Under the pieces are notes generated by a model. The model saw nothing but the letters and a program-made list of their open reading frames with translations. It was not told where the DNA came from and made no database searches. 64,000 nucleotides of DNA from a bacterium (GTDB taxonomy: Bacteria > Patescibacteriota > Saccharimonadia > Saccharimonadales > UBA4665), in assembly GCA_021804085.1 (NCBI GenBank), contig JAJZKM010000002.1:4345-68344 (forward strand). The letters are read 5' to 3'. Made by a program: the position numbers and the translations under genes. Below, piece by piece: positions 44,416-58,524 of the stretch (positions are counted from its first letter, which is position 1; each line of letters starts with the position of its first letter).

Positions 44416-44466
44416 TTCTAATTTTGTATTTGATTCTCTCATATCCTCGGCTAAGAATCCTGCGCG

Positions 44467-44504
44467 TTTAGCACAGTAACTATCATTCTAGATTAGAACC
44501 TTAA
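44467..44504 (+). repeat. Intergenic module copy E1 (3' fragment only)
   Basis: TTTAGCACAGTAACTATCATTCTAGATTAGAACCTTAA aligns with the sORF end plus downstream site of copies E3 and E5. Confidence 0.6.
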
Positions 44505-44588
44505 CGTTCGTCGCTAGCAAGCAGTCTTGATTGACAGGTATGTGCAACAAGATATAATTTTTGAGAGTATCATAAAGGAAAATAAATA

Positions 44589-44972
44589 ATGACAAACAAA
44601 AACTTTCAAAAAAATCAAAATATCAAATTTAACCAATCAGGCTTTGCTCATCTGATAATTATAGCTATTGCTGTAGGAGTGGTTGTGGTGGTTAGTGCAG
44701 TTGGGTATGTTGTATACCACAACAATCAGAAAGCCAACAATGCCGCCTCCACTTCTGGAGTTCGACAGACTACTACCTCAAGTCAGACTCCCGTGACCAC
44801 TCAACCTCAACCAGCTCCAACTCAACCAGCAAGTCCGACCACAAGCACTAGTACCCAGACAACTGAAACTCCTCAGACAACTGAAACTCCTCAGACGACT
44901 GAATCAACCTCAACCAGCACCAACAAGAGTACTAGTACCGACAAGTCCTCTTCAGCATCTACTGACAACTAG
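44589..44972 (+). CDS. Membrane-anchored S/T/P/Q-rich low-complexity protein
   Basis: 127 aa with an N-terminal TM. Contains an 18-nt tandem repeat (44856-44903) coding TETPQT x2.5. Confidence 0.5.
   Translation: MTNKNFQKNQNIKFNQSGFAHLIIIAIAVGVVVVVSAVGYVVYHNNQKANNAASTSGVRQTTTSSQTPVTTQPQPAPTQPASPTTSTSTQTTETPQTTETPQTTESTSTSTNKSTSTDKSSSASTDN
44856..44903 (+). repeat. 18-nt in-frame tandem repeat (CAGACAACTGAAACTCCT x2 plus a partial unit)
   Basis: Direct reading of two perfect units plus a 12-nt partial unit. Confidence 0.85.
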
Positions 44973-45010
44973 TCAACTAGCAAGTTTTGATTAAGTTGGG
45001 ATAACTTTGT

Positions 45011-46027
45011 TTATTTAGAACTTTGTGTCTGAATGTTCTGCAGTGAGTTAATGGGCTGACTGCCATTGTATTCAGTGACCAGGGTATTGTAGGCATTGCT
45101 TAGCTGGTTATATTGATTAATAGCTGCATTCTCCTGGTTGATATAGTTTTTATATATATTGTAATTGTACGTATCTTCGTAAACGTTCCCTTGTTGCGCC
45201 CAGGCCAAGCTATCAGCATATGCCTTATTGGCTAGGCTGTCATCTGAAGCAATAGTAGTGCGAAGTTGTTGCAGTTGTGTCTGGTCATTTTGAAATATGG
45301 CCGTGACACGATTGTAACTATCTACGGTAAGCTGTCTATTCGCAAAATAGGGAGTATAGAAATTCTCTAGACTTGGCGTAACATTATTGAACTCTGTTCC
45401 TAGTAACGAGAAAAGCTCTAAGTCTCTATATCCGGGTTCGGTATTTGCAAAGTTAACCACCTGAGCATCTAGTGCAGGGTTGTGTAATGAGTTATAACTT
45501 CCTTCTATGGCTTGAACTAAGAAAGTATTTTGGCCGTTATCAGACAAGCTGAAATAGACGGAGTGCAACATTTCATAAGTTGCTGTGACGATTTCCTGGT
45601 CGTATAAGTTGGCGGGCATTTGGCGTATATAGATACGACCATTAGCATGATTATGTATATTAGGCACAAAACAGCCCTGCTCTATAAAGCCGTTATTGTT
45701 GTTTGCTGCCGCATTGTTGGCACAATATGTTCGCATTTGAGTATCTGTGGCAAACAGCGGGTTTGTTCTTAGGAAAACCAGCTCACCCTGCTTATTCATG
45801 CCTGCTTGTTGTGCTAAAGCCAGCATAGCAGGGTTAGCGTTTTTTAAAATTACACTGTCAGGAATAGGTTGGAAATATAGAATCAACGCAGCGATTACTA
45901 TAGAAAGTAGTAAAATTACTGCAGCTATAAGATAAGATTTATAATCTCTACTCCTCTTGGTGATTTCCCCTTGTTCTTTTTTTACTCTGGTTGTAGCTTG
46001 ACTTTCGACCTCGTTTGACTCTTCCAT
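45011..46027 (-). CDS. Membrane-anchored hypothetical protein
   Basis: 338 aa. Charged N-terminus, one TM (LIAAVILLLSIVIAALILYF), N/Q/Y-rich extracytoplasmic domain. Confidence 0.55.
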   Translation of the reverse strand: MEESNEVESQATTRVKKEQGEITKRSRDYKSYLIAAVILLLSIVIAALILYFQPIPDSVILKNANPAMLALAQQAGMNKQGELVFLRTNPLFATDTQMRTYCANNAAANNNNGFIEQGCFVPNIHNHANGRIYIRQMPANLYDQEIVTATYEMLHSVYFSLSDNGQNTFLVQAIEGSYNSLHNPALDAQVVNFANTEPGYRDLELFSLLGTEFNNVTPSLENFYTPYFANRQLTVDSYNRVTAIFQNDQTQLQQLRTTIASDDSLANKAYADSLAWAQQGNVYEDTYNYNIYKNYINQENAAINQYNQLSNAYNTLVTEYNGSQPINSLQNIQTQSSK

Positions 46028-46240
46028 ATGCCCTTCATTGTACTAGTAAAAGAGTTAAGCAGACAATTATTAAGTATACTTATGAATCTATAGCTTTATC
46101 CTCATAGATTCTTAATTCGATGTTTTATCACGCTGCCTGAGGGGGTGTGATGTTTCTAGTAAAGTAATAACAGGCATGCCATAACGAAAGTCGAAATGCG
46201 AAAAGTGGTTCATCTAAACATGGTTTAGTTTAAACATTCA

Positions 46241-46275
46241 ATGGTACACCGCAGTCCGAGAGGTCAGAACCTTAA
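46241..46275 (+). repeat. Intergenic module copy E2 (5' and 3' motifs joined, internal part missing)
   Basis: ATGGTACACC-14 nt-CAGAACCTTAA. Confidence 0.5.
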
Positions 46276-46285
46276 TTGCAGAAAG

Positions 46286-46693
46286 CTATACTGAAACTAA
46301 CTTAGTGTTCGGTGCTTGATTAGCTAGTTTTTTATCAAACGTCCATAAAGGTTCTGCACTGTTAAGCTGAGCATATACTGATAGGCAACAATCCTCAAAA
46401 GATAAACCACTGTGCTTAACATAAATAAGTATAGCCCTCTTGAAGAGTGCTTTATTAGAGTTTATTTCTTTTAAATTCATAAGACCTTCTAATGCTTCTG
46501 TAATCTCTAACCGACTAAATTCGTAATATCGGTCTAGGACAAACACTAACTCAATTATTGCTGTATCGGCAATAGAAAATTGTTTCGTAGCTTGGTGCAA
46601 TAATTTCTTTGTGGCAGTATGTTGCTCAGGTATATCATTAAGTAATAAACGTAACAACACGTTAGTGTCAAATGAGCCACTATAGTTAGCCAT
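46286..46693 (-). CDS. vapC: PIN-domain toxin VapC
   Basis: 135 aa. The N-terminus GSFDTNVLLRLL holds the first acidic PIN residue. Lies downstream of an AbrB-type antitoxin with a 3-nt gap. Confidence 0.85.
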   Translation of the reverse strand: MANYSGSFDTNVLLRLLLNDIPEQHTATKKLLHQATKQFSIADTAIIELVFVLDRYYEFSRLEITEALEGLMNLKEINSNKALFKRAILIYVKHSGLSFEDCCLSVYAQLNSAEPLWTFDKKLANQAPNTKLVSV

Positions 46694-46696
46694 GGC

Positions 46697-46945
46697 TTAT
46701 CTTATCCTGTTGGCTTGGTAAAATGCGTCTGCATCAACGAGAGGCTTGACACCAGATTTAATATATCCCGTTAACTTCTTGCTCAGCTCATCTATGCTAA
46801 TAGCCTTAGATATTACAAGTTCATTTTTATTTTCGTTAAAATTCATCTGGAGTACGCCACCACCTTTATCTAGCCCTAATTTACGCCTGACTGGTGCAGG
46901 TATTGTTGTCTGGCCTTTACTGGTAATAGTAATTGTATCTTTCAA
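46697..46945 (-). CDS. vapB: AbrB/SpoVT-MazE-type antitoxin VapB
   Basis: 82 aa. ITSKGQTTIPAPVRRKLGL swapped-hairpin motif. Confidence 0.85.
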   Translation of the reverse strand: MKDTITITSKGQTTIPAPVRRKLGLDKGGGVLQMNFNENKNELVISKAISIDELSKKLTGYIKSGVKPLVDADAFYQANRIR

Positions 46946-47131
46946 TCACATTACTATAGCAAAGAATGTTACTAATTGCAATAGGTAATGAAAACTAGCC
47001 ATACATTATTATTATGCAAAGTGCTCTGGCAAGCAGGATTATAACTTAAATCCAATCTGTTAATAGTCACCACGTTTAAAAGTCTCCGAATTTTATAATG
47101 TATATGAATCTATACTAGAAATTAAAAACCT

Positions 47132-47236
47132 ATGTGGTACACCTTTCCAGTTTCTGCTTGGAACCGCCTCAAGAGCGAGCCACTTCGCTGGCACGAAACA
47201 TTTGAATCATCAACTCTGCAAAGTTTAGGACAGTAA
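47132..47236 (+). CDS. Conserved small ORF (34 codons), copy A
   Basis: MWYTFPVSAWNRLKSEPLRWHETFESSTLQSLGQ*. It is 20/29 identical to copy B from the shared Pro onward. Ten of those identical residues use different synonymous codons (e.g. Arg CGC vs AGG). A TATAAT box lies at 47094-47099. Confidence 0.55.
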   Translation: MWYTFPVSAWNRLKSEPLRWHETFESSTLQSLGQ

Positions 47237-47257
47237 CTACCGTGCTGGATTAGAACC
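47132..47257 (+). repeat. Intergenic module copy E3 (full length)
   Basis: GGTACACC ... sORF ... TAACTACCGTGCTGGATTAGAACC. The post-stop 23 nt are 21/23 identical to copy E5. Confidence 0.75.
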
Positions 47258-47322
47258 ACGTGACCCAGTTCACGGAAAACCTATTGTCAAACTTTATAAA
47301 GTTTTAATATACTTATAAAGTT

Positions 47323-48237
47323 ATGAACTATTCTAAGCAACTAAAGGCTATATTGGATGCAAGTGGGTGGACGCAGGAAGAACTTGCTAAACAATTAGGT
47401 GTTTCGTTTGTAACTCTCAACTCATGGGTTAACGCTAAGTCTAAGCCTCGTAAGAGGGCGCTTGAATCTATACGTATTCTGTACTTTAATGTGCTGGGTG
47501 CCGACATTTTAGATGTAGGCTATCTTGAAGAGCTGAAAGAAAAAATAGAGCATTTTAGCATTAAGCTCCCTCAAATCACTGAAAACAAGGAGGTGCTTGA
47601 CAGGCTTATACTCTACTTGACCTATCATACAAATGTCATAGAGGGCAGTACCATGACGCTTGATGACACAAGAGAGGTTCTTTTCGAAAACAGAACCCTA
47701 ACTAACAGAACGCAAATTGAGCAAGCTGAGGCCAGGAACCACAAAGCCGCACTAGTTTGGCTACTGGGTGCGTTACAAAGCAAGAGTTTTGTAATTGACG
47801 AGAGTTTAATAAAAGGGCTACACCTCAGGCTCATGAACGGCATTATAGAAAATGCATGACTGTACAGAAACCATTCAGTTCGCATAATGGGTGCGCATGT
47901 TACGGTTGCCAATCATCTAAAAGTGCCTGAATTAGTGCATGAGCTGCTTACGAAAATTAATGCTAAGGCTAAAGAAGAAGTCACAGAAAAATTATCTGAA
48001 ACTCATGCTATTTTTGAGAAGATACATCCATTTAGTGATTGTAACGGAAGAGTGGGCCGATTACTAATGCTTGCCCAAGCCTTACAAAGAGGTATTGTGC
48101 CACCTTTGGTGCTGAAAGAGAGAAGGCAGGCATACTATAAGTATTTAGAGCTTGCACAGACTCAAGATAACGTGATGCCTTTACAGCTTTTTATAGCTGA
48201 ATCTATAGTTGCAGCCAATGACCTACTATTTAAGTAG
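47323..48237 (+). pseudogene. HTH(XRE)-Fic family protein interrupted by one in-frame TGA
   Basis: ORFs 47323-47859 and 47887-48237 are in the same frame. The N-terminal HTH is QEELAKQLGVSFVTLNSWVN, and the class II inhibitory motif is TNVIEG. TGA at 47857-47859 sits where Fic proteins have the Gly of A-G-x-Y-R (NA*LYRNHSVRI). The Fic motif reads HPFSDCNGRVGR, with Cys in place of the canonical Gly. Confidence 0.8.
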
Positions 48238-48316
48238 CAAAAGGCGCTAATAGGATTCGAACAGGTTTGAAGAAGTTATTGTGTTGAGATGATTGTATTC
48301 ATCCAATGTTAGAACC

Positions 48317-48376
48317 TTAGAAACAGAGGTTTACACTTTAAGGGTCGAATGGTACACTCTGCTGGATATGTTGAGA
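48317..48376 (+). repeat. Intergenic module copy E4 (3' motif followed by truncated 5' motif)
   Basis: GTTAGAACCTTAG-28 nt-ATGGTACAC-TCTGCTGGAT. Confidence 0.5.
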
Positions 48377-48574
48377 AAGAAATATTATGTGGTTATTGTT
48401 AGCACTGCCAAAGAAATAGAACTAGCTAAGCAGTATCTGAATGCTTCACCAGAACTTAGCTATATAGTACGATAACCGATATATAACTTATCGATTAGCA
48501 GCATAAGGTAAATAAATAATGTTTTCACTTGCCCTATTTTGAAAACCAATAGTATATAGGGATATGGGTAGAGA

Positions 48575-49567
48575 TTAGCTACTTAAGGCTTCACGCAGTT
48601 TAGCTGCTTGTGCCGCCATCTCATGAAGTTCACCAGGCAGCTGACTTACTGGTGCTGTAGCATTGTCACCCTTAATTTTATTTAGTAAATCATTGCCATA
48701 AGTTGCAATGCCAACCAAACGATTAGCTGACAAACCAGCTAATGCAGCACCCAAAGTTCGTGATGGTCTATAAGTACCGCTAGTAACATGTACTATGGGA
48801 GAGGTTTCATCTCCGCTAGCTTTAGTAACTTCATCAACAATACCAATTACCGCAGCAGTTCCAGGCTGTCTGTCGTACTTACCGCCCTCTAAATCTCTAC
48901 GGCTAATCTGCATAAGAATAACTGGCGTGCCATTGACTTCACCAACAGCTTGAAATTGTCCTGTTGGTTCTCGGAAAACCTTATTATTATCGTTTATGTC
49001 GTAGGCAGCATTTAAGACTCTTGGCTCTGGGTATTCAATAAACCCAGGTAAAGCTCGGGCGACATCACTCGCTACATCATATTCTGTTGTACCAACTCTT
49101 CCGAATAATCTTTGTGAACTAGCAACCTCAGCCTCGTTCTTAATTTCTCTATGTGGGCTGGCACTTATTATAATAGACTTGGGTTGGGCTGATACATCGT
49201 CTATTACCATTCTGGCTTCTGCTAACATCTTATGAGGTTGACCGCCCTCTACGATTACTGTAGCACCAGTAAAACCTTGTTCACTCAAATTAACATTTTC
49301 GGCTCTACCGAAACCTAATTCACTAGCTTTGCATAATAAAGCCGTCTTAGCTTCCTCTGTAAGTTCAAGTATATCAGGACTTTCTGCACGCACTTCTGTT
49401 GGTTTTGGGAATACTTGCAAAGGGTCTGCGTCAGGTGTCTCAGGAAAAGCTATGCCGACAGCGTCTTTTAATATGGTTTCTGATTGTACTAATACTTGCT
49501 CTGCATATGCTAATACTTGCTCTGCATATTGGTGGGATGTTGAGGGAGTTTCGTAACTTTTAGTCAT
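48575..49567 (-). CDS. Hypothetical protein (possibly DUF218/YdcF-like Rossmann fold)
   Basis: 330 aa. VIVEGGQPHKM and IVHVTSGTYRPSRT loosely resemble the GG and VTS..H..R motifs of DUF218. The N-terminus carries a 7-aa tandem duplication. Confidence 0.5.
   Translation of the reverse strand: MTKSYETPSTSHQYAEQVLAYAEQVLVQSETILKDAVGIAFPETPDADPLQVFPKPTEVRAESPDILELTEEAKTALLCKASELGFGRAENVNLSEQGFTGATVIVEGGQPHKMLAEARMVIDDVSAQPKSIIISASPHREIKNEAEVASSQRLFGRVGTTEYDVASDVARALPGFIEYPEPRVLNAAYDINDNNKVFREPTGQFQAVGEVNGTPVILMQISRRDLEGGKYDRQPGTAAVIGIVDEVTKASGDETSPIVHVTSGTYRPSRTLGAALAGLSANRLVGIATYGNDLLNKIKGDNATAPVSQLPGELHEMAAQAAKLREALSS
49490..49529. repeat. Near-perfect 21-nt tandem duplication inside the CDS (YAEQVLA/YAEQVLV)
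   Basis: TAATACTTGCTCTGCATAT occurs twice in direct tandem with 21-nt periodicity. Confidence 0.85.
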
Positions 49568-49731
49568 AATGAATATCCTTTACTTAAAATTAATTAAATT
49601 TCTATCCCTATTATAGCTGATTATTTAACTAGTGTCAATAAATGATTCACGGTTATAACCAAATTTAAGGAAGAAAATTATTAATGTGAAATTGCTATTC
49701 ACAAAATCGTAAAATATGATAGTATGATTAC

Positions 49732-50523
49732 ATGGAAGACACATTAATTAAAGCAGGACTTTCTCGATTACAGGCTCAGGTGTATTTATACTTACTTAAT
49801 AATGGTGCTGTCTCTCCAAGTATTCTTACAAGCAATCTCAGCATAACGAGGACTAATGCATATAAAGTGCTGGAGTCACTTGAAAAATTAGAACTGGTGA
49901 AACGTAAAACAAAAAATAAAAAAGCTGTATATTATCCCGAAAATCCAACAGCACTAGCTTCACTAGTTGCAGAAAAGCGTAATGAAGTGATTTCCCTAGA
50001 GCAAAGCGTCGATAAAGCAATACGTGGCCTTCAGAGCAAGTACCGGAAGCAGAAGACCGACATAAGTGCAGAAGTATTCGTAGGAAAAGGGTCTATTATT
50101 GAGTCTTATGATAAGCAAGTCCAGCAAAGACAGCCAATATATTTTGTAAAAAGTCGAGTCGATATACCTTTTATGGGCTTTGAGGCAATGGATGAAATAC
50201 GCCGAAAACAGGGTAAGCTTTCAGGTTGTAGGTATGGCCTAACTACTGACTCAGCAGAGGCTCCTAAAGATAAAGCAATAGACAGAAAGACTCATTTAAA
50301 AAGAACTTGGATGAATGAAAATGATTATACTTCTCCTGTTGAATGGTCAGCAAGTGGTGACACGTTAGTTATTCAAGTTTTTGACGAAGATGGCAAAAGT
50401 ATAGTTATTAAAAGTGGATTAATTACCGAGTCCTTTACTCAGTTATGGCATATAGCCGATAAGGCATTGAGGAGCTCAGTGGATTATAAAAATCATCCAG
50501 TTAAAGCCTCTCGGGTGGTTTAA
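49732..50523 (+). CDS. TrmB-family winged-helix transcriptional regulator
   Basis: 263 aa. N-terminus LIKAGLSRLQAQVYLYLLNNGAVSPSILTSNLSITRTNAYKVLESLEKLELVKRK. Upstream inverted repeat GTGAA-7-TTCAC at 49686-49702. Confidence 0.7.
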   Translation: MEDTLIKAGLSRLQAQVYLYLLNNGAVSPSILTSNLSITRTNAYKVLESLEKLELVKRKTKNKKAVYYPENPTALASLVAEKRNEVISLEQSVDKAIRGLQSKYRKQKTDISAEVFVGKGSIIESYDKQVQQRQPIYFVKSRVDIPFMGFEAMDEIRRKQGKLSGCRYGLTTDSAEAPKDKAIDRKTHLKRTWMNENDYTSPVEWSASGDTLVIQVFDEDGKSIVIKSGLITESFTQLWHIADKALRSSVDYKNHPVKASRVV

Positions 50524-50696
50524 TAAAGAACCTAACGCTATTATGCTCTAATATACGGGCTGAAATAATCATTACAAAGCATAGTAATCATAAAAATAAG
50601 TCATATTTGCCCCGTCCATGTACTTAAAACACCCTAGAGGATTCGAACAGATATAATCTGTGACTTCCGAATATACTAACTGGAGTGAATATTCAA

Positions 50697-50798
50697 ATGG
50701 TACACCTTCCAGTTATGGCATGGAACAAACTGAAAGATGAACTTTTGAGGTGGCATGAGACTTTTGAAGTAACACCTCTGCCAAGTCTAGCACAGTAA
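50697..50798 (+). CDS. Conserved small ORF (33 codons), copy B
   Basis: MVHLPVMAWNKLKDELLRWHETFEVTPLPSLAQ*, paralog of 47132-47236. A TATACT box lies at 50672-50677. Confidence 0.55.
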   Translation: MVHLPVMAWNKLKDELLRWHETFEVTPLPSLAQ

Positions 50799-50818
50799 CT
50801 ACCGTACTGGCTTAGAAC
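50697..50818 (+). repeat. Intergenic module copy E5 (full length)
   Basis: ATGGTACACC ... sORF ... TAACTACCGTACTGGCTTAGAAC. Confidence 0.75.
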
Positions 50819-50898
50819 ATTAAAGATAAGCAGCATCAAAGTTGTATAAATTGTATAATGGTTTCAACATTGACCACCAAGCTATTAGAGGAAACTAA

Positions 50899-51552
50899 AT
50901 GAAGCAGATTAAGGCAATACTTGAGATTCGATATGAACAGATGCCAGAACTCTTTGCCTACAAGAATAAGGTTGTAAGAGCATTGGGTGGATCTGATGCT
51001 GAAAAACAAGCATCTCTAGTAGAAAACGTGAACATTCGGGCAGAAAATCAGTTCGCACACATTTCTGTCGAGCCATATCGTTTACTTATCACTGTTGAGC
51101 GTAGAGAATCCAAAAAAGCTCAAGAATATATCTTGGGTGTTTATGAAAAAATTGATAACCTGCTACATCTCAGCTCGGTTAAGCAGGTTGGATACAGGTG
51201 CATATTCATCGAGGAAAGTGACGACAAGTTCAACGATCTAGTAGCCAGACAAAGAGCTGCTTTTTACAGAAGTACTTCTCTAACCGATGACGCAACAGAT
51301 GTAGCCATGCCCCTGACATTCAAGATTGGAGACTATCGAGTTAACTTCCTAGGTGGTCCAGTTAAGCCAAACGAACTGAAGGATCGGCTTGAGTATAAAG
51401 ACATTGAAGCCAAAAATAGCTTTCTGATTGACCTAGACTTTATTAAGTACAATTTGAGCGTATCGAGACGCTCTCTAAAGCAGCACATTGAAGAAGTTAG
51501 GAAATACCAGAAGGATCTAATCGGCAAGTGGGAAGGAGCTATTTATGAGTAG
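50899..51552 (+). CDS. Hypothetical soluble protein, first gene of a three-gene operon
   Basis: 217 aa. GAGGAAAC RBS-like sequence upstream. No motif I can name. The stop overlaps the next start by 8 nt. Confidence 0.6.
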   Translation: MKQIKAILEIRYEQMPELFAYKNKVVRALGGSDAEKQASLVENVNIRAENQFAHISVEPYRLLITVERRESKKAQEYILGVYEKIDNLLHLSSVKQVGYRCIFIEESDDKFNDLVARQRAAFYRSTSLTDDATDVAMPLTFKIGDYRVNFLGGPVKPNELKDRLEYKDIEAKNSFLIDLDFIKYNLSVSRRSLKQHIEEVRKYQKDLIGKWEGAIYE

Positions 51553-51892
51553 TGCTTATGCGAACGCTACGACCTTAGCAGTAACTTCTACAGAAAGGGT
51601 GCGTAGGGGTTCTGAAACGACTTGGTATATCGAAGAAGATACCAAGCCAAAATCTGAGCTGAATGAAGAAGTGATAGTCATCGAAAGAGTTATTTTCAAA
51701 TCTAAGGTACAAACCTACGTAGATCGGCATTCTAAAATAAACCTGGCCGGCGTTGGCATTACTGCTCTGACTATGGTTATTCTCGCACTTGTCGGCAAGG
51801 CATGGATTATATTCTTTGTAGTGCCTTTCTTTCTTGGGTTTTTGGAAATGTATATAACGGTGCTGGTGGATAAGCATACTCGGAGCAGCTAG
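51545..51892 (+). CDS. Small protein with C-terminal double TM hairpin
   Basis: 115 aa. Soluble N-terminal about 65 aa, then GVGITALTMVILALVG and IIFFVVPFFLGFLEMYITVLV. Confidence 0.55.
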   Translation: MSSAYANATTLAVTSTERVRRGSETTWYIEEDTKPKSELNEEVIVIERVIFKSKVQTYVDRHSKINLAGVGITALTMVILALVGKAWIIFFVVPFFLGFLEMYITVLVDKHTRSS

Positions 51893-51895
51893 GCC

Positions 51896-52186
51896 GTGAA
51901 ATATCTAAAAGCTCTAGGCGGCTTCATCACAAGTACGTTTAGCGTTCTAAAGCCACATAAGTTCTTGATTAAAGACGCTCCCCAGTCAATGAAGACGAAC
52001 ACATATCTGTTAATTCTTATGGCGGTGATCTTGATTATAATGATCGTCGTCGCAAGGGCTGTACTAACAGATCAGCCGTTTGCACATAATAACTTTGCAT
52101 ATTTTTGTCTTGTGGCCTTGTGTTTTGTAGTCGAGGTGGGATATTTTGCTTACTGTTCGATTTATCATAATAGCCGACCGGATTAG
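51896..52186 (+). CDS. Small 2-TM membrane protein
   Basis: 96 aa. GTG start 3 nt after the preceding stop. TM segments YLLILMAVILIIMIVVA and FAYFCLVALCFVVEVGYFAY. Confidence 0.5.
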   Translation: MKYLKALGGFITSTFSVLKPHKFLIKDAPQSMKTNTYLLILMAVILIIMIVVARAVLTDQPFAHNNFAYFCLVALCFVVEVGYFAYCSIYHNSRPD

Positions 52187-52298
52187 CCAACGAGTTTCAG
52201 GTGCTGTTAAACGATTTTCGAGAAACAACCATAATTTATACATCTCGACTATAAAAACGCAGTACAGATGAGAATATAGGGTGATAACGAAGAAACTG

Positions 52299-52562
52299 CT
52301 ATGACTTCTTCTTGTTCCGTTTGCTCTTAGCCTTTTCTTCCTGATACATGTCGTACGTTAGCTCTGCCAGTGCTTTGGCATCACGTTTCCGAGCTTCTTT
52401 GAAGTCTTCAAGTTGCTGCTTGGTAATTGGCTGGTAAATGAGTTCCATTTGCCGGACTAGCTTCGATAGCTGCTCACGTGCGTTATGTTTATCAATATCT
52501 TTGCCGAATTGAGCTTTGTATAGCTTCTGGTACTTGATAATATCGCTGTCGAGTAATTCCAT
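52299..52562 (-). CDS. Hypothetical charged helical protein
   Basis: 87 aa with a K/E-rich C-terminus. Convergent with the three-gene operon. Confidence 0.45.
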   Translation of the reverse strand: MELLDSDIIKYQKLYKAQFGKDIDKHNAREQLSKLVRQMELIYQPITKQQLEDFKEARKRDAKALAELTYDMYQEEKAKSKRNKKKS

Positions 52563-52610
52563 AGTTTTCTGAATGACTTAGCTACTTCACTTTCTTATCT
52601 GCACTGGTAA

Positions 52611-52820
52611 GTGGTGTATAGTTATAGTATGACACAATCTGAGAAAAAAGAGCCTAAACTGCTCACGCTCAGGCAGACATGCGAGATATTGAATTGCCAT
52701 CCAAACACTTTACGAGCGTGGGATGCAAAGGGCTATTTGATTGCGGTACGTTTCGGCACACGAGGCGACAGACGTTATCGTAGAGAAGATGTAATGAAAC
52801 TAATGGAGAAAAAGAAATGA
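52611..52820 (+). CDS. MerR/excisionase-family (HTH_17-like) DNA-binding protein
   Basis: 69 aa. LLTLRQTCEILNCHPNTLRAWDAKGYLIAVRFGTRGDRRYRREDV. The stop overlaps the mod start (ATGA). Confidence 0.75.
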   Translation: MVYSYSMTQSEKKEPKLLTLRQTCEILNCHPNTLRAWDAKGYLIAVRFGTRGDRRYRREDVMKLMEKKK

Positions 52821-54955
52821 TACTGAGTGATAACGAAAAACGAGATGTTATTAAGTATCTAGAGTCCGGTAAGCCACTGCCAGAAAAGTATCGTTTTTTG
52901 TTATTTGATGACACTCGTGAGGTTGAGTTGTTGTGGAACGGCAAGACTAATGAAGTTACTAATACTGTTCTACCGTTCCAAGTCATAGAACAGATAGACG
53001 AACCACGAAGCGACGAAAAGATTGGGCTGCAATCAACGCTTTTTGATGACAGTGGCAGACAACTTACTGGCTGGACTAACAAACTGATATGGGGCGATAA
53101 CAAGCTCATCCTTTCGTCTCTTGCTAACGGACCAATGCGTAAAGATATTGAAGCACAAGGTGGCTTAAAATTGATTTATATTGACCCCCCTTTTGACGTA
53201 GGTGCTGATTTTTCAATGGACATAACTATTGGTGATGGTAATGAAGAAGAGAGTTTTGTGAAAAAACCATCAGTTATAGAAGAAATCGCTTACCGTGATA
53301 CATGGGGTAAAGGCTCAGATAGCTTTATAGCAATGATTTACGAGCGTCTTAAACTTATGCACAATCTGCTTGCTGATGACGGAAGTATTTATGTTCATTG
53401 TGATTGGAGAGTAAATTCGTATTTAAGATTGGTATTGGATGAGATTTTCGGTAAGGATAGGTTTTCTAACGAAATAGTCTGGCGATATAGCGGTTGGAAT
53501 AAAAAGTTATCAAGTTCATTCGAAAAGAGGCATGACTCAATCCTCTTTTACAGTAAATCTGACAAACCAGTATTCAATTCCTACTTCAAACCGTGGGAAA
53601 GCAAAGAGGCATACGTAAAAGCTCGTAAACAAAAGATACTTAGGGATGATGACGGTCGTGAATATGTGAATTCTGACGCAGGTGGCGGAAAACGAATAAG
53701 AAGATACTTAGACGAAGTTATGAATGAGGGTGTGGTAATTGATGATGTTTGGTTAATTGATAAGCTAAATAACTCAGCAAAAGAAGGCGTCGGTTACCCT
53801 ACGCAGAAAACAGAAGCACTTCTTGAGAGAATAATTAAGGCGTCGTCAAATGAGGGTGACTTGATTGCTGATTTCTTCTGTGGCTCTGGTACAACTATGG
53901 CTGTAGCAGAGCGTCTCAATAGAAAATGGATTGGTTCTGACTTAGGTAAATTCGGTATTCATACATCTCGCAAACGCATGATTGATGTGCAAAGAAAACT
54001 TAAAAAAGAGGGCGTAGATTTCCGTGCCTTTGAGATATTAAACGTAGGTAGATACGAGCGAGAGAATTATCTTAATGTAAACGATGACTTACGTGCCGAA
54101 CAAAAGGCTCAACAAGCTGCCAAAAAAGAAAAAGAGTTTGTAAAACTGATTATTACGGCTTACAAAGCCGAACCAGTAGAATCGTTTGTAAACATTGTAG
54201 GTAAAAAAAGAGACAGGCTTGTCGCTGTTGGTCCGATCAGCACCCCAGTATCATCAAAACAAGTAGATGACATAGTTTCAGAGTGTAAGGATAAAGGTAT
54301 TACTAAGATTGACATACTTGGCTTCGATTATGAGATGGGACTAGATTTCCAGGAGTATAGCACTCATGGAATAGATGTAGCGTTTAGAATTATACCTAGA
54401 GAGGTATTTGATAAAAAAGCAGTTGAGCGTGGTCAGGTAAAGTTCTATGACGTTTCTTTTGTTGAAGCAAAGTCGACGGTTAAAGGTCCAATGAACAAAA
54501 AAGAGCTTACCGTTGAACTTACTGATTTTTCTGTATCTTATAACCAGGGTGACTCTGGTGAAGTGGCAGAGGCATTACGTCCTGGCGGAGAAAAAGTTAT
54601 TGTAGAAAACGGTCAAGTTGTAAAAGTTTCAAAAGATAAAGACAGTGACATTATTTCAAAAGATGTACTGACCAAGAAATGGAGTGATTGGATTGACTAC
54701 TGGGCTGTAGACTTTGATTTTGCTAGCCGTAAAGAGATTATTAAAAAAATAAATGATAAAGACGAAGAATACGAAGAATGGACTGGTGATTATATTTTTG
54801 ATAACGAATGGCAGAGCTTTAGGACAAAAAAGAACCGAGAGCTTGAGCTTACTTCGGCTTCTAAAGAAGTTGGTCGGGGCAAGTATAAAGTAGCTATCAA
54901 GGTGGTGGACATATTTGGCAACGATACAACTCATGTGATTGAGGTAGAAGTATAA
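52817..54955 (+). CDS. mod: Type III restriction-modification methyltransferase (Mod), beta-class N6A/N4C MTase
   Basis: 712 aa. Motif IV LIYIDPPFD precedes motif I DFFCGSGTT (beta order). Followed 1 nt later by res. Carries a C-terminal extension of about 300 aa. Confidence 0.88.
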   Translation: MILSDNEKRDVIKYLESGKPLPEKYRFLLFDDTREVELLWNGKTNEVTNTVLPFQVIEQIDEPRSDEKIGLQSTLFDDSGRQLTGWTNKLIWGDNKLILSSLANGPMRKDIEAQGGLKLIYIDPPFDVGADFSMDITIGDGNEEESFVKKPSVIEEIAYRDTWGKGSDSFIAMIYERLKLMHNLLADDGSIYVHCDWRVNSYLRLVLDEIFGKDRFSNEIVWRYSGWNKKLSSSFEKRHDSILFYSKSDKPVFNSYFKPWESKEAYVKARKQKILRDDDGREYVNSDAGGGKRIRRYLDEVMNEGVVIDDVWLIDKLNNSAKEGVGYPTQKTEALLERIIKASSNEGDLIADFFCGSGTTMAVAERLNRKWIGSDLGKFGIHTSRKRMIDVQRKLKKEGVDFRAFEILNVGRYERENYLNVNDDLRAEQKAQQAAKKEKEFVKLIITAYKAEPVESFVNIVGKKRDRLVAVGPISTPVSSKQVDDIVSECKDKGITKIDILGFDYEMGLDFQEYSTHGIDVAFRIIPREVFDKKAVERGQVKFYDVSFVEAKSTVKGPMNKKELTVELTDFSVSYNQGDSGEVAEALRPGGEKVIVENGQVVKVSKDKDSDIISKDVLTKKWSDWIDYWAVDFDFASRKEIIKKINDKDEEYEEWTGDYIFDNEWQSFRTKKNRELELTSASKEVGRGKYKVAIKVVDIFGNDTTHVIEVEV

Positions 54956-54956
54956 T

Positions 54957-57647
54957 ATGGCTCTTCACAAAGACTTCCCGACAGACCCTTACGTCATTCT
55001 AGACCCTAGTATTCGCTGGTTTCCAGCCGACGAAGATTTGCGAGATAAGGGTCACGAGAAACTGTTACCGCCTCTTGTTGCTGACCTACGTAAAAAGGTT
55101 AAAGGCTGGCGATCATTGAATTACGAGGGTGCTAGTGACACGTCAAAAGCATTGCTCAACTGGTGGTTCAAAGAAGACCACGTAATGTACAACCAAGACG
55201 GTAGTTCGTACAACTTCCGATATTATTTCGCACAGCGTGAAGCATTAGAAACAGTCGTTTGGTTATACGAAGTCGCAAAGGTCAAAGACAAATACGATCT
55301 AATCCGCTACAACTCGACCGGCGTACTCAGTGCTGGTATGTTTACCGAAGAATGGCTTCGTTTTGTTATAAAGATGGCTACTGGTGCTGGTAAAACCAAA
55401 GTAATGAGCCTCGTGTTGGCTTGGGCATACTTCCATAAAAAGTACGAAGAAGACTCATTGTTGTCAAAGAACTTCTTGCTCATTACGCCAAACGTTATAG
55501 TTTTTGAGCGTATCAAGAATGATTTTGAAGGCTTAAAGATATTCCATGAAGACCCCGTACTACCAGACAATGGTTATCGTGGTCAGAACTGGCAAGACGA
55601 TTTCCAGCTAACGCTTCATTTGCAAGATAATCTACGGAACATATCTGACACTGGCAATATATTCCTGACAAATATACATCGTGTATTTGAATCTGACGTT
55701 AAAGAACCGACTGCAAATGACGAAGACTCATCAGCCTATTTCTTAGGTGATAAACCAGTAACAAAGACTAACGATTCTACAGTTGATCTAGGGATGATTG
55801 TCAGGGACATAGATGAGCTAATTGTTATTAACGATGAAGCACATCATATCTGGGACGACAAGTTAGCTTGGGCGAAGTCAATTCAAGACATTGATAATCA
55901 GCTCAAACAAAAAGGCTCTGGTTTAGCATTGCAGATTGATGTTACTGCTACGCCAAAGAAGCGTGATGGCTCTATCTTTGTACAAACAATTAGCGACTAC
56001 CCTCTTGTGGAGGCGATACATCAGCAAATTGTTAAAAATCCTGTTGTTCCAGACGCTGCCAGCAGAGGTAAATTGCACGAGAACCAAAGCTCTCTGTTTA
56101 GCGAGAAGTATAGAGACTTTATAGACCTCGGCATTGAAGAGTGGCGTAAAACCCATGAAGAACTGAAGCCAATGGGCAAGAAGTCTATTTTGTTCATAAT
56201 GACTGACGATACTAAGAACTGTGACGAAGTAGCAGAATATATCAAGACTAGCTTTGCTGATTTACGAGACAGCGTACTGACCATCCACACCAACAAGAGT
56301 GGTGACATATCTGAAACCGTTTCTGGCAAAAACAAAGATGACCTGGACCTATTACGGAAGCAAGCTAATGAGATTGATAGCTGGGAAAGTCCTTTTAAAG
56401 TCATAGTTTCAGTGATGATGCTGAAGGAAGGCTGGGACGTTAAGAACGTAACTACTATTGTTGGTTTAAGACCATATGCTGCTGACTCAAAGATCCTACC
56501 AGAGCAGACATTGGGGCGTGGATTGCGCAGAATGTTCTTTGGTAGAGACGAAGTTAAAGAATATGTTAGCGTGGTCGGTACTCCTGCATTCATGGAGTTC
56601 GTGGAGTCCATCAAGGGTGAAGGCGTCATATTAGAGAAGAAAGCAATGGGTACTGGCACTAAGCCAATAGCTCCAATGGTTGTCGAAGTAGATAATGAAA
56701 ATCCTCAAAAGGATATTGATAGATTGGATATTGAAATACCAGTAATGACACCACGCATACAGAGAGAATACAAAAACCTGGCCAATCTAGATGTGTCAAA
56801 GTTCGGTAATAAGAAAGTACCAGTAAAGAAATTCAGTGAGCAAGAGAAACGAGAGATTGTCTTCAAAGATGTAGTTGGTGAAATCACTCATCATACTACA
56901 GTATTGAGTGGCGAAGTAAATCCTGACCACCAGAGTGTCATTGGTTTCTTTACACAGGCTATCATGCGAGAATTACGTTTGTTCGGTTGCTATGACATCT
57001 TGTTTGGTAAGGTCAAAGAATTCGTCCATCGGTACATGTTTGATAGCGAGGTTGAGCTATCCGATCTGAATATGCTTAGAAACCTCTCAGAAGTAGAATA
57101 CATACGTCTAATCAAGGACTCTTTCAAGAAAGCAATCAATGAACTAACTGTTCAAGATAGTGGCGATACAGAGATAAAGAACTACATTAAAATCAGCGAG
57201 TCCCGACCATTCGTAGTAAATGATAAAGGCTTTGTTGTTCCTAAGAAGTCAGTCTTTAACAAGATAGTTGGTGACAGTGACTTCGAATTAGTCTTTGCCG
57301 GATTTATTGAGGGCTGTGATGATGTAATTTCGTTCACCAAGAACTTCCAGAACAAAGAAGCCAGTGCATTGAGAATCGAGTATAAGAACTCTGAGGGCTT
57401 TATCGCCAACTACTATCCGGACTTCTTTGTGAAGAAAGACAGTAAGACTGTATATATCATTGAAACCAAGGGCCGTGAAGAAGAGGATGACAAACTCAAG
57501 TTCAAAAGATTGCAGGAGTGGTGCGAAGATGTAAATAGCCGTCAAAACAAAATGACGTATAAGGCACTCTATATCAAGCAGGAAGATTGGAATAAGGATA
57601 GACTAAAGAGTTTCGACGAAGTTGTAAGAGTATTCGGGGATGAATAA
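54957..57647 (+). CDS. res: Type III restriction enzyme Res subunit (SF2 helicase plus PD-(D/E)xK nuclease)
   Basis: 896 aa. Motif I MATGAGKTKV, motif II NDEAHH, helicase C (MLKEGWDVKNV...QTLGRGLR). C-terminal nuclease YYPDFFV...IIETKG. Confidence 0.92.
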   Translation: MALHKDFPTDPYVILDPSIRWFPADEDLRDKGHEKLLPPLVADLRKKVKGWRSLNYEGASDTSKALLNWWFKEDHVMYNQDGSSYNFRYYFAQREALETVVWLYEVAKVKDKYDLIRYNSTGVLSAGMFTEEWLRFVIKMATGAGKTKVMSLVLAWAYFHKKYEEDSLLSKNFLLITPNVIVFERIKNDFEGLKIFHEDPVLPDNGYRGQNWQDDFQLTLHLQDNLRNISDTGNIFLTNIHRVFESDVKEPTANDEDSSAYFLGDKPVTKTNDSTVDLGMIVRDIDELIVINDEAHHIWDDKLAWAKSIQDIDNQLKQKGSGLALQIDVTATPKKRDGSIFVQTISDYPLVEAIHQQIVKNPVVPDAASRGKLHENQSSLFSEKYRDFIDLGIEEWRKTHEELKPMGKKSILFIMTDDTKNCDEVAEYIKTSFADLRDSVLTIHTNKSGDISETVSGKNKDDLDLLRKQANEIDSWESPFKVIVSVMMLKEGWDVKNVTTIVGLRPYAADSKILPEQTLGRGLRRMFFGRDEVKEYVSVVGTPAFMEFVESIKGEGVILEKKAMGTGTKPIAPMVVEVDNENPQKDIDRLDIEIPVMTPRIQREYKNLANLDVSKFGNKKVPVKKFSEQEKREIVFKDVVGEITHHTTVLSGEVNPDHQSVIGFFTQAIMRELRLFGCYDILFGKVKEFVHRYMFDSEVELSDLNMLRNLSEVEYIRLIKDSFKKAINELTVQDSGDTEIKNYIKISESRPFVVNDKGFVVPKKSVFNKIVGDSDFELVFAGFIEGCDDVISFTKNFQNKEASALRIEYKNSEGFIANYYPDFFVKKDSKTVYIIETKGREEEDDKLKFKRLQEWCEDVNSRQNKMTYKALYIKQEDWNKDRLKSFDEVVRVFGDE

Positions 57648-57651
57648 GGAT

Positions 57652-57870
57652 CTACCGGATGTTCGTTAAATCAGATACTGAAACCCTCAATGCTTTAGCA
57701 ATCTTTTCAAGGCTTTCCAGTGAAGGGTTGCGCTCACAGCGTTCCACGCCCGATATGTAACTTCTGCCTAAGCCAGAATTAATGCCAAGCTTCTCCTGAG
57801 ACAATCCAGCAGCCTTGCGATAATACTTAACCCCTTTTGCCAATTTCTGTTTTGTGCTAGTCCGTGCCAT
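57652..57870 (-). CDS. XRE-family HTH protein
   Basis: 72 aa. AAGLSQEKLGINSGLGRSYISGVERCERNPSLESLEKIAKAL. Convergent, 4 nt from the res stop. Confidence 0.8.
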   Translation of the reverse strand: MARTSTKQKLAKGVKYYRKAAGLSQEKLGINSGLGRSYISGVERCERNPSLESLEKIAKALRVSVSDLTNIR

Positions 57871-58482: not shown

Positions 58483-58524
58483 CAAAGTAAGGGTAATATA
58501 AGTAGGCAAGGTATAATCAGAACT

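Follow-up and report, generated by a model that had tools for sequence, protein, structure and literature searches.

Toxin-antitoxin and defence gene cassettes arrayed between tRNA-Arg-like junction modules in Saccharibacteria

In Saccharibacteria, small arrays of gene cassettes, for the most part toxin-antitoxin and defence genes, have repeated modules of about 125 nt as their junction sites. The module ends mimic the 3' end of tRNA-Arg, and the modules are probably attachment-type sites of mini-islands serially integrated at tRNA-Arg genes. In our best reading, the system is integron-like in its working, yet it is no integron.

Saccharibacteria live as obligate epibionts and have tiny genomes; little is understood of the ways in which they gain and shuffle accessory genes. 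We analyzed a 64,000-nt stretch of Saccharimonadales DNA (the window), in which a sequence-only reading had proposed a family of intergenic modules, and compared it with further genome and metagenome loci gathered by module search.

Results

Modules and reduced copies in the window

The window contains two full modules (nhmmer, E ~1e-37) and three reduced copies (Table 1). Two full and three partial or rearranged copies had been proposed beforehand, and this set is confirmed. The full modules are 72% identical over 112 gap-free nucleotides (47145-47256 and 50707-50818), and the 26-nt 3' site CAGTAACTACCGTRCTGGMTTAGAAC occurs twice in the window, compared with zero occurrences expected from 100 shuffles. 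The module ends are TGGTACACC and GGATTAGAACC among 33 aligned copies, corresponding to GGTTCTAATCC and GGTGTACCA on the opposite strand; the minus strand of module A reads GGTTCTAATCC...GGTGTACCA. The 1-nt indel noted earlier near the 5' end is present: the ATG of the short open reading frame (sORF) in module A is shifted by 1 nt, and a 1-nt insertion offsets the shift. Two strain contigs terminate within module B, at window positions 50773 and 50781.

The reduced copies at 44466-44503, 46242-46271 and 48309-48366 are genuine members of the same system. The short form at 46242-46271 recurs in the same 30-nt format and with a near-identical sequence in L010, L014, L015, and L016. The composite junction comprises a tRNA T-loop-like fragment at 48252-48264 (reverse complement, CTGTTCGAATCCT), TTAGAACC at 48309, a conserved spacer (..AACAGAGG..), and a module start, ATGGTACACTCTGCTGGAT (48349-48366). 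The spacer/extension of this junction (48309-48366) was also found upstream of four external module copies (L009, L012, L013, and L016). The upstream piece AGGATTCGAACAG is indeed shared between 48252 and 50638, as had been observed. The proposed likeness to a palindrome at 61472 was not sustained, as the local alignment scored 29 (null, 26.8 ± 4.4), a value equalled or exceeded by 30% of random windows.

Table 1 Junction sites and cassettes of the array in the window.
Feature	Position	Strand	Description
Truncated module	44466..44503	+	3' 38 nt only (..GCACAGTAACTATCATTCTAGATTAGAACC); nhmmer model positions 93-130, E 7e-6; repeat family D2; left-most array junction in the window
Cassette 1	44504..46241	.	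127-aa Thr/Pro-rich membrane protein (44589-44972, +) and 338-aa protein (45011-46027, -); ORFs, Pfam
30-nt short-form junction site	46242..46271	-	Minus strand GGTTCTGACCTCTCGGACTGCGGTGTACCA; vapC stop codon 14 nt away
Cassette 2	46272..47131	-	vapB (46697-46945) and vapC/PIN (46286-46693); Pfam PIN, MazE/AbrB-type antitoxin
Full module A	47132..47259	+	sORF 47132-47236 (34 codons); conserved post-stop site 47234-47257
Cassette 3	47260..48308	+	HTH-Fic gene; Pfam HTH_3 and Fic
Degenerate composite junction	48252..48366	+	T-loop-like fragment, TTAGAACC, conserved spacer, truncated module start
Cassette 4	48377..50637	.	330-aa protein (48575-49567, -) and TrmB-family regulator (49732-50523, +)
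tRNA T-loop-like fragment	50638..50650	-	Minus strand CTGTTCGAATCCTCTAGGGTGT; 18/20 nt identical to the L007 tRNA-Arg(gcg) 3' end
Full module B	50696..50821	+	sORF 50697-50798 (MVHLPVMAWNKLKDELLRWHETFEVTPLPSLAQ); conserved post-stop site 50796-50818
Large last unit	50822..61383	+	Three-gene operon, 87-aa gene, HTH_17 (excisionase-type) gene, type III restriction-modification, three unknown genes, Xer-like tyrosine recombinase; Pfam, NCBIfam, PADLOC scans

Mimicry of tRNA-Arg and anchoring of the arrays

On the opposite strand, the conserved module ends are GGTTCTAA...GGTGTACCA, namely the T-loop and the acceptor/CCA end of tRNA-Arg. Read on the tRNA strand, the site has a T-loop-like start (GGTTCnnA) and an acceptor-like end (GGTGTACCA). 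The reverse complement of the module ends in GGTTCCAAGCGGAAACTGGAAGGTGTACCA, the short sites read GGTTCTGACTTCTCGGACnnnGGTGTACCA, and the tRNA-Arg(gcg) gene of L007 ends in GGTTCGAATCCTGTCGGGTGTACCA. The 30-nt short form shares the tRNA-like ends of the module, and the sites occur in three formats: a real tRNA end (25 nt), the 30-nt short site, and the 125-nt long form. Junction sites have the arrangement GGTTC..(17-19 nt)..GTACCA and are oriented like the tRNA.

The arrays are anchored at tRNA-Arg genes, beginning at or just past the CCA end of 11 intact genes detected by ARAGORN. In L013, the cassette homology starts at 3412 and the tRNA ends at 3416. Because the loci were gathered by module search, the association rests on tRNA genes that chance to lie within them; among these, 11 of the 11 tRNA-Arg genes ending in GTACCA (G1-U72) are followed, 253-2619 nt downstream, by a site in the same orientation, compared with none of the four ending in GCACCA. 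The window tRNA-Arg(tct) ends in ..GGGGCACCA and has no array, and the L033 gene ends in ..GGGGTACCA and has one. The U72 signature is present on four different tRNA-Arg isoacceptors. Beyond the outermost module, no direct (exact) repeat of the adjacent tRNA's own 3' end was detected.

Distribution of the module and recurrence of cassettes

The module is not local to the window. The search for further copies, which the sequence-only reading had recommended, yielded 12 genome loci and 17 metagenome loci, with 37 full copies in ~30 Saccharimonadales contigs; no module was found in IMG/VR viral contigs. One metagenome-assembled genome (MAG FK5.bin85) carries at least six copies. Same-orientation site arrays with one- to two-gene cassettes between the sites were observed in L010, L013, L014, L016, and the window. 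Site spacing ranges from 66 to 3436 nt, several arrays have ~1 kb between modules, and the median cassette size is ~860 nt.

Cassettes encoding MazEF, Phd-PIN, RHH-RelE, VapBC, and HTH-Fic recur in other genomes with other genes beside them, and the module ends mark the exact points at which their homology is lost. Shared cassettes are 82-91% identical between different arrays and genomes. The earlier view of the modules as boundary elements between exchangeable cassettes is borne out by these recurrences. As for the comparison of strains that had been suggested, the window and four strain contigs from this population proved co-linear, and it is across genomes that cassette breakpoints coincide with module ends. 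Circular or empty-site forms were not seen.

tRNA-Arg ends, short sites, and module ends are interchangeable at the same junction of the same cassette. In L013, a genuine tRNA-Arg with its CCA directly precedes the MazEF cassette, and short sites take that place in L010, L006, and L032. The same junction of the RelE/RHH cassette is formed by a tRNA in L027, a module in L008, and a short site in L016. The stop codon of a convergent gene lies no more than 10 nt from the GGTTC end in 17 of 38 copies.

Within the window, a perfect TTGACA-16-TATAAT box was detected by promoter scan at 44531-44558 in cassette 1. The vapBC pair of cassette 2 also adjoins a module in L013 (77% amino acid identity). 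Cassette 3 recurs in L012, upstream sequence included, and its HTH-Fic gene has its own predicted promoter (47284-47313, promoter scan). This gene is interrupted in the window by TGA at 47857-47859 and is intact (304 aa) in strain contig L001.

The sORF of the long form

Nucleotide substitutions in the sORF are concentrated at the third codon position (48, 35, and 129 at positions 1, 2, and 3), and synonymous codons are used for Arg (CGN and AGG) and Leu (CTN and TTR). The pN/pS ratio is 0.20, compared with 0.37 in the wobble-aligned antisense frame and 1.0-1.9 in the other frames. The exact 33-codon ORF is found in 22 of 33 copies; it is effectively intact in about 27 and disrupted in five to six, with ~14% nucleotide divergence among copies. 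Thus, the coding signature first noted in the two window copies holds, and its counts were reproduced (20 of 29 residues identical from the shared Pro, with different codons for 10 of these 20). A 33-residue peptide, read antisense to the tRNA and kept under purifying selection, is the predicted product of the long form. As a guess, this putative peptide could act as a directionality or accessory factor; it could also be one more micro-protein carried by cassettes.

Of 33 copies, 31 begin with ATG, TTG, or GTG. The first base of this codon belongs to the flanking DNA (A in 11, T in 11, G in 9, and C in 2), and the depletion of C is marginal (P = 0.036). A Shine-Dalgarno-like sequence precedes 1 of 39 sORF copies, compared with 5% of random positions and 25% of long ORFs, and no conserved region was found upstream of the module. 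The 21/23 nt identity reported from the stop codon onward was reproduced, and the post-stop site is better conserved than the ORF, as claimed, with 0.95 and 2.2 differences per column, respectively.

A structured non-coding RNA was considered as a candidate and rejected. No Rfam family reached its gathering score, the modules themselves had no match at E<=5, and no conserved structure was detected; RNAalifold yielded -5.8 kcal/mol with 0 compensatory pairs, and module fold z-scores lay between -2.4 and +0.9. The suggested check of coding potential against RNA covariation gave a clear coding signal and no covariation.

A candidate recombinase

The large last unit ends with a tyrosine recombinase gene at 60454-61383, preceded by an overlapping gene for a 313-aa protein. 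The recombinase is best matched by Xer models and scores 42.8 bits on the integron-integrase model TIGR02249 (cut-off 265). Its homologues have a same-strand module 6.5-9.7 kb upstream in three of eight informative loci and none in the other five. The layout of module, cargo, 313-aa-type gene, and recombinase is repeated in L037 and L041. The recombinase end of the large unit lies beside a tRNA in none of the loci examined. A search of 4-10 kb around the modules in L005-L033 revealed no tyrosine recombinase, and the small cassettes encode no integrase.

Discussion

A proposed mechanism

Sequence comparison shows the anatomy of the arrays, their tRNA mimicry and anchoring at tRNA-Arg, the interchange of sites, and the coding signature; that recombination takes place, which enzyme performs it, and what the peptide does are inferences. 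Units of 0.25-3.4 kb are stacked directly downstream of Saccharimonadales tRNA-Arg genes. As a rule, a unit comprises a single toxin-antitoxin operon, or one to two genes of defence or unknown function, under its own promoter, and each junction has a tRNA-like end sequence (a real tRNA end, a short site, or the long form). Circular cassettes may be inserted at the tRNA-Arg 3' end by a tyrosine recombinase that is site-specific, acts in trans, and is probably Xer-like. Because each insertion would add a new copy of the mimic, arrays could grow and cassettes could be swapped. The outcome would be functionally like an integron or like the tandem accretion of integrase-less islands. On balance, we favour the assignment of the modules as attachment-type sites of such mini-islands as the probable explanation.

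A fuller scenario is tentative and, in our view, rather doubtful. Saccharibacteria (CPR, ~1-Mb genomes) may have evolved integron-like gene capture independently, with an Xer-like recombinase from elsewhere or from a larger 'master' island inserting promoter-bearing mini-cassettes serially at tRNA-Arg 3' ends. Each mimic would then be the next landing site, and the 33-residue protein of the long form would join in or control recombination.

Alternative explanations

It is unlikely that no mechanism is active today and that the arrays are decaying scars of ancient tRNA-Arg integrations, with an sORF pattern inherited from the master gene of an unsampled autonomous element and the copies themselves fossil. 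Truncated or frameshifted copies (44466, 48349, L013, L008, and L032), the lack of a Shine-Dalgarno-like sequence, and the lack of a nearby recombinase at most loci agree with decay, but the ORF is kept in 27 of 33 copies despite their divergence, different arrays and genomes share cassettes that are 82-91% identical, four isoacceptors bear the U72 signature, and viral contigs in IMG/VR lack the module. Still less likely, the 33-aa gene would stand alone as a leader or regulator of the downstream toxin or defence operon, its 3' site being a terminator or operator and its repetition a gene duplication. This fits the strong coding signature and the next gene lying on the same strand 12-111 nt away in ~11 of 38 copies, including both window copies. 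However, the 3'-side gene is convergent in most copies, with its stop codon no more than 10 nt from the module, and co-directional next genes have their own predicted promoter between module and gene, which argues against the leader or co-regulatory role suggested earlier. The downstream genes also belong to unrelated families, Shine-Dalgarno-like sequences and a conserved upstream region are absent, and the 30-nt short form, the tRNA mimicry, and the tRNA-Arg anchoring would be left unexplained.

Spread between genes as a MITE-like non-autonomous transposon carrying the ORF by chance is very improbable. The discrete 122-125 nt unit with sharp ends, its multiple copies within one genome (MAG FK5.bin85), and its weakly inverted ends (GGTaC..TCCAG / CTGGA..GaACC) would suit such an element, but none of 37 copies has a target-site duplication (4-9 nt), the location is specific and the orientation constant relative to tRNA-Arg genes, the ends are those of a tRNA 3' end, the interior evolves as coding sequence, and no transposase is associated; the inverted similarity itself is weak, and one 'paired' position varies freely. 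We find it hardly credible that the modules are attC sites of an integron, of the size of the Vibrio VCR (~125 nt), recombined as single-stranded hairpins by an IntI integrase. The resemblance lies in same-orientation sites separated by one- to two-gene cassettes rich in toxin-antitoxin systems, in sites directly after a stop codon, and in conserved ends flanking a variable length (30 or 125 nt). Three defining features of integrons are nevertheless contradicted. The RYYYAAC (R'') and GTTRRRY (R') cores are absent from the ends of 33 aligned copies. The consensus has no end-to-end DNA fold (z = -1.1 on both strands) and no compensatory changes, and a base needed for pairing is free to vary, being the third position of a Pro codon. 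The sole nearby recombinase falls far below the integron-integrase cut-off (42.8 against 265 bits), and it is a tRNA gene, rather than an attI site beside intI, that opens the arrays.

Significance and comparison with known systems

The arrays would constitute a compact, recognisable platform for stockpiling and exchanging toxin-antitoxin and defence genes, findable by its signature of a tRNA-Arg gene ending in GTACCA followed by GGTTC...GTACCA sites. If the proposed recombination is true, they would represent a second, independently evolved route to integron-like arrays and a naturally occurring means of site-specific insertion in organisms that are difficult to engineer. For a recombination site to contain a conserved protein-coding ORF would be unusual, and the ORF offers a concrete putative micro-protein.

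The sequence-only reading had matched the architecture to no described system. The tRNA-Arg mimicry and anchoring make it comparable to tRNA-targeted tandem islands and, by analogy, to integron arrays. The pdif modules of Acinetobacter plasmids and IMEX elements have XerC/D-type sites at their borders and depend on host Xer recombinases for movement; they are likewise small, often carry toxin-antitoxin or resistance genes between 28-30-bp sites, and contain no recombinase. The sole candidate enzyme here is also Xer-like, whereas the sites are not dif-like, share one orientation instead of alternating, and are chromosomal at tRNA-Arg.

The large last unit of the window (module, type III restriction-modification, and Xer-like recombinase) resembles tRNA-type integrative defence islands with Xer-like tyrosine recombinases, such as pipolins (PMC11551731). 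It differs in having no PolB and, in the loci examined, no tRNA beside its recombinase end, and the small cassettes have no counterpart there. Sedentary chromosomal integrons, for example the Vibrio cholerae superintegron with its ~125-nt VCR attC sites and many toxin-antitoxin and defence cassettes (PMC4889954, bioRxiv 10.1101/2024.07.02.601686), are similar at the level of function: ordered arrays of one- to two-gene cassettes rich in such genes, a recombination-type site after each, and conservation of the sites within a lineage. Unlike them, the arrays here have no IntI, attI, R/L core boxes, or hairpin symmetry; they start at a tRNA gene, their sites are mimics of a tRNA end, and their cassettes have promoters of their own.

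Tandem ('accreted') islands at t(m)RNA 3' ends include integrase-less, cis-mobilizable elements, as in the CIMEs beside ICESt1/ICESt3 of Streptococcus thermophilus and the ssrA-specific islands of Dehalococcoides (PMC3146451; reviewed in PMC5704250). In both these islands and our arrays, the insertion point is the 3' end of an RNA gene that is left intact, direct repeats similar to that end are found at every junction, and serial arrays include members without their own recombinase. In contrast, the units described here are far smaller, typically a single toxin-antitoxin operon of ~0.9 kb, four tRNA-Arg isoacceptors are used, and most arrays have no nearby recombinase. The repeat is a diverged mimic rather than an exact duplicate, and one of its forms has expanded to 125 nt with a conserved ORF.

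Module copies in the window and beyond

The module, a repeated intergenic unit of ~125 nt carrying a 33-codon small ORF (sORF), occurs in the window in two full copies, A and B, with 72% identity over 112 ungapped nt (47145-47256 vs 50707-50818). The values given for this pair in the sequence-only reading were reproduced exactly: from the shared Pro onward the peptides agree at 20 of 29 residues, ten of these 20 use different codons, and from the stop codon the copies agree at 21 of 23 nt. A 26-nt site beginning just 5' of the stop codon occurred twice, against zero expected from shuffles. Three further copies, described earlier as partial or rearranged, are genuine members of the module system, and the upstream extension of the composite one recurs at four external copies. 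The upstream 13-mer AGGATTCGAACAG was present at 48252 and 50638 as claimed.

Table. Modules, tRNA-Arg genes and neighbouring features (window coordinates unless a locus is named)
Feature	Position	Remark
Full module A	47132-47259	profile placement
Full module B	50696-50821	profile placement
Partial copy	44466-44503	last 38 nt (3' end) of the module
Partial copy	46242-46271	conserved 30-nt short form
Partial copy	48309-48366	composite: TTAGAACC, conserved spacer, truncated module start
tRNA-like 3' fragments	48252, 50638	at junctions, without CCA
Promoter-like box	44531-44558	perfect consensus
Promoter-like box	47284-47313	before Fic
HTH-Fic gene	47323-48237	in-frame TGA at 47857-47859
21-nt tandem duplication	49487-49530	TACTAATACTTGCTCTGCATATG / TGCTAATACTTGCTCTGCATATT
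Gene of 87-aa protein	52299-52562	- strand
Candidate recombinase gene	60454-61383	Xer-like tyrosine recombinase
Recombinase plus overlapping gene	59513-61383
CTAGTCA/TGACTAG repeats	61430-61640	five copies, both orientations
Serine recombinase in phage-like block	62894-64000
tRNA-Arg genes viewed by position-72 class	24429-24505, 37480-37556; L033 10686-10761; L018, L028, others

In a pattern scan with each GTDB species represented by one genome, the 3' site was detected in 12 loci, and the whole ~125-nt unit accompanied it in all matches but one. The informatively titled loci were Saccharimonadales/Saccharibacteria MAGs, except one labelled Dormiibacterota, which is probably mis-binned because its layout is typical of Saccharimonadales. 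In this contig (L005, DATLRC010000005.1, binned as 'Candidatus Dormiibacterota'), the tRNA-Arg 3' ends are identical to those of locus L021, and the short site, the sequences flanking the junctions and the adjacent ORFs match as well, all at corresponding offsets. When JGI metagenomes were scanned with the peptide, 17 more loci were obtained, and a profile search across the collected DNA placed 37 full copies, at most three per 8-kb locus. The edges are sharp: conservation begins at TGGTACACC and ends at TTAGAACC, and the flanks are unrelated. The copies form a widespread family and are more than a local duplication. It was absent from IMG/VR both as a DNA pattern and as a peptide, and a phage origin was rejected on this basis.

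Four contigs of the window's population were 99.5-100% identical to the window and co-linear, and were therefore uninformative on cassette turnover. Contigs ended inside a module or less than 200 nt from one in seven of ~19 whole contigs (L007, L017, L019, L022, L023, L024 and L041), and two strain contigs (L002 and L004) likewise end in a module, at window 50773/50781. Such ends could reflect assembly breaks at a repeat or variation of the neighbouring cassette within the population.

Coding potential of the sORF

Substitutions in the sORF numbered 48, 35 and 129 at codon positions 1, 2 and 3 (19 copies). Arg was encoded by CGG, CGC, CGA, CGT or AGG and Leu by CTN or TTR, and both Trp codons were nearly invariant. 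Across 33 copies, pN/pS was 0.20 in the sORF frame and 1.0-1.9 in other frames, except for the antisense frame that shares its wobble positions with the sORF, where it was 0.37. Although the module has an open frame on the opposite strand too, an antisense ORF was rejected on its higher pN/pS (0.37 vs 0.20); CTN/TTR and CGN/AGR switches are synonymous in the sORF frame only. The exact 33-codon ORF was found in 22 of the 33 copies and ~27 are effectively intact, the remainder having a premature stop or a late frameshift. Judged by these substitution patterns, the sORF is predicted to be coding and is under purifying selection.

The consensus peptide is (M/L/V)VHLPVSAWNRLKSELLRWHETFEVSPLPSLAQ. 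No relative was found in Pfam or PDB, and a word-indexed search of 5.8 billion proteins gave no match. An exhaustive phmmer search of 1.84 billion representative proteins returned 11 matches (E ≤ 0.001), ten of which were short mis-called ORFs (48-105 aa) with unrelated extensions; the eleventh was a 599-aa repeat protein with a weak match (E = 1.8e-4) that was only partial. The peptide is therefore not the end of a longer protein, and its origin as the displaced 3' end of a longer gene was rejected by the protein, Pfam and PDB searches. A 51-aa protein in the representative library (P0011) is a distant relative in which the motif is duplicated in tandem (EVAPWNKFKDSLIRWN twice), suggesting that such micro-ORFs may belong to a wider family.

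A Shine-Dalgarno-like motif preceded the sORF in one of 39 copies, compared with 5% of random positions and at least 25% of long ORFs, and no conserved promoter was found upstream. The conserved unit does not include the first base of the start codon (A in 11, T in 11, G in 9 and C in 2 copies), and the depletion of C was marginally significant (P = 0.036).

The module was also evaluated as a structured RNA, and this was rejected for want of an Rfam match, a stable fold or covariation. Rfam gave no match at the gathering score in the whole window, and at E ≤ 5 within 44300-51000 only two weak matches to unrelated families, both outside the modules. Single-sequence folds of the modules had no significant stability and were not better than shuffles. 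RNAalifold of 33 copies detected no covariation, with a consensus fold of -5.8 kcal/mol and no compensatory pair; the local dyad AGCACAGT/ACCGTGCT at the stop codon likewise showed no covariation.

Module ends have the format of a tRNA-Arg 3' end

On the opposite strand, the module reads GGTTCTAATCC-AGCACGGTAGTTACTG ... CTGGAA-GGTGTACCA. Its last 30 nt on that strand, GGTTCCAAGCGGAAACTGGAAGGTGTACCA, share their format with a 30-nt short site, GGTTCTGACTTCTCGGACnnnGGTGTACCA, present at window 46242-46271 and again in other loci. The right cassette end reads ...stop-GGTTCT...GGTGTACCA. Both the module end and the short site are in the format of the tRNA-Arg 3' end, for example GGTTCGAATCCTGTCGGGTGTACCA in locus L007. 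Therefore, the 5' motif of the sequence-only reading, ATGGTACACC, is the complement of an acceptor/discriminator/CCA end. The TG of the sORF 'start codon' is complementary to the CA of CCA, and the earlier 3' motif TTAGAAC is the complement of T-loop-like GTTCTAA. Additional tRNA-like 3' fragments without CCA occur at some junctions, two of them in the window; one such fragment, GGTTCGAATCCTGTCAGGTCAAT, was found in L009, L012, L013 and L016.

Interchangeable junctions of gene cassettes

Cassettes, the gene units between two junctions, were compared among loci. The MazEF cassette shares 82-91% identity across eight loci. In L013 its homology starts at most a few nt from the CCA of a genuine tRNA-Arg(gcg), and in L010, L006 and L032 it starts directly behind 30-nt short sites. 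Within 5-8 nt of the mazF stop codon there is a full module (L006, L010 and L029-L032), a tRNA-like fragment (L013) or a remnant TAGAACC fused to an HTH-Fic cassette (L012). The RelE/RHH cassette is preceded at the same nucleotide by a tRNA-Arg (L027), a module (L008) or a short site (L016), and the vapBC and HTH-Fic cassettes of the window recur beside modules in L013 and L012. Real tRNA ends, short sites and modules are thus interchangeable at the points where cassette homology starts and ends, and the proposal of a boundary element was right. The module finding is confirmed and reaches further than the sequence-only reading could show.

At many junctions, the first 12 nt after ...GTACCA contain the box (A)GCATAAGC or the complement GCTTATG(C/T) (L005, L008, L012, L018, L026 and L028-L033). 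Modules are followed by this box, and so are three different tRNA-Arg isoacceptors from three genomes; it may be the other half of a recombination site.

All sites of an array have the same orientation, with a spacing of 66-3436 nt (median ~860). The cassettes are mostly single TA operons (MazEF, VapBC/PIN, Phd-PIN and RHH-RelE); others hold one or two genes, such as Fic, nucleotidyltransferase, DUF488 and unknowns. In 17 of 38 copies, a convergent gene ends with its stop codon at most 10 nt from the GGTTC end. Promoter-like boxes were located in the window (Table), and TGTATAAT lies upstream of the three-gene operon. Cassettes thus appear to carry their own predicted promoters, which argues against the earlier suggestion that the module acts as a leader.

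Three local features of the window were recorded. The HTH-Fic gene, split by a TGA, is intact as one 304-aa gene in strain contig L001 (2 mismatches over 12.6 kb vs the window), and the TGA stems either from a very recent inactivation or from a sequencing difference. In L026 and L022, homologues of the 87-aa protein (70-83% identity) are encoded beside large defence-type genes, at a distance of a few kb from modules. The 21-nt duplication is located near the 5' end of a 330-aa gene (- strand) and yields a repeated AEQVL(A/V)Y in its protein.

Anchoring of arrays at tRNA-Arg genes

A same-orientation site was found 253-2619 nt downstream of 11 of 11 tRNA-Arg genes ending ...GTACCA (G1-U72; anticodons ccg, tcg, gcg and tct) and of none of four ending ...GCACCA (G1-C72), a within-locus association and not a genome-wide census, as the loci were ascertained via the module. 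Other tRNAs had a downstream site only if they were upstream of such a tRNA-Arg. The tRNA-Arg(tct) of the window ends CCCGGGGCACCA and has no array; in L033, the counterpart, which does have an array, ends CCCGGGGTACCA. In the simplest reading of U72, incoming DNA supplies ...TACCA, and exchange therefore occurs 5' of position 72. Alternatively, U72 may be a target requirement of the enzyme instead of a scar of recombination. Insertion would be site-specific under either reading. A classical attL/attR duplication of the adjacent tRNA's own 3' end was not found beyond the outermost module. The window array runs 44466 > 46242 > 47132 > 48252-48366 > 50638-50821 in an orientation that would put the anchoring tRNA to the right, and no tRNA was present there before the window end.

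A candidate recombinase

The Xer-like recombinase of the window scored 105 bits with XerA and 94 bits with XerC, and only 42.8 bits on the integron-integrase model (cut-off 265). Its gene shares the strand of module B, from which it is 9.7 kb downstream, and is directly preceded by an overlapping 313-aa gene. Homologues share this setting. RM/defence genes lie upstream in most loci, and a gene overlapping the recombinase start is always present (window and L034-L044), encoding 313-327 aa or a 208-215-aa MgsA_C-domain protein. A phage-like block, often with a serine recombinase, follows in most loci and ends at a tRNA (Lys, Gly or Asn) in L036, L040 and L041. The region is apparently an independent conserved hotspot.

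A module was located 6.5-9.7 kb upstream on the same strand in three (window, L037 and L041) of the eight recombinase loci with enough upstream sequence; by a rough estimate that assumes a few modules per ~1-Mb genome, chance alone would yield only ~1-2%. The link is not obligatory, and no tyrosine recombinase was found within 4-10 kb of the modules in L005-L033. As a module is present in only these three loci and no shared att-like motif was found downstream of the homologous recombinases, the enzyme is a candidate, not an identification. We infer the recombination mechanism and its enzyme, as we do the role of the peptide.

The CTAGTCA/TGACTAG copies just downstream of the recombinase gene look like putative binding-site repeats of this enzyme; the equivalent region of L037 has different repeats (CTTCCGGTTTTCGAC twice and GCTGAACGTGACTAG twice). 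The resemblance previously noted between the module site and the palindrome at 61472 was not above chance (score 29 vs null 26.8 ± 4.4), and a link of the module to the palindrome or repeats beside the recombinase was rejected.

Comparison with known systems

The module is not a MITE, because no target duplications were found. Sedentary chromosomal integrons resemble the arrays in function only; IntI, core boxes and hairpin symmetry all fail, and the arrays are therefore not to be filed as integrons. Full-text literature searches gave no description of such arrays in Saccharibacteria/Patescibacteria. What is new is a mimic of the tRNA-Arg end that separates mini-cassettes, in a lineage without any described counterpart, and whose long form carries a 33-codon ORF under purifying selection. 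Among known systems, the arrays come closest to islands that accrete in tandem at the 3' ends of t(m)RNA genes, some of them cis-mobilizable elements that lack an integrase (PMC5704250, PMC3146451); they share with these both insertion 3' of an intact tRNA and tRNA-end-like repeats at the junctions.
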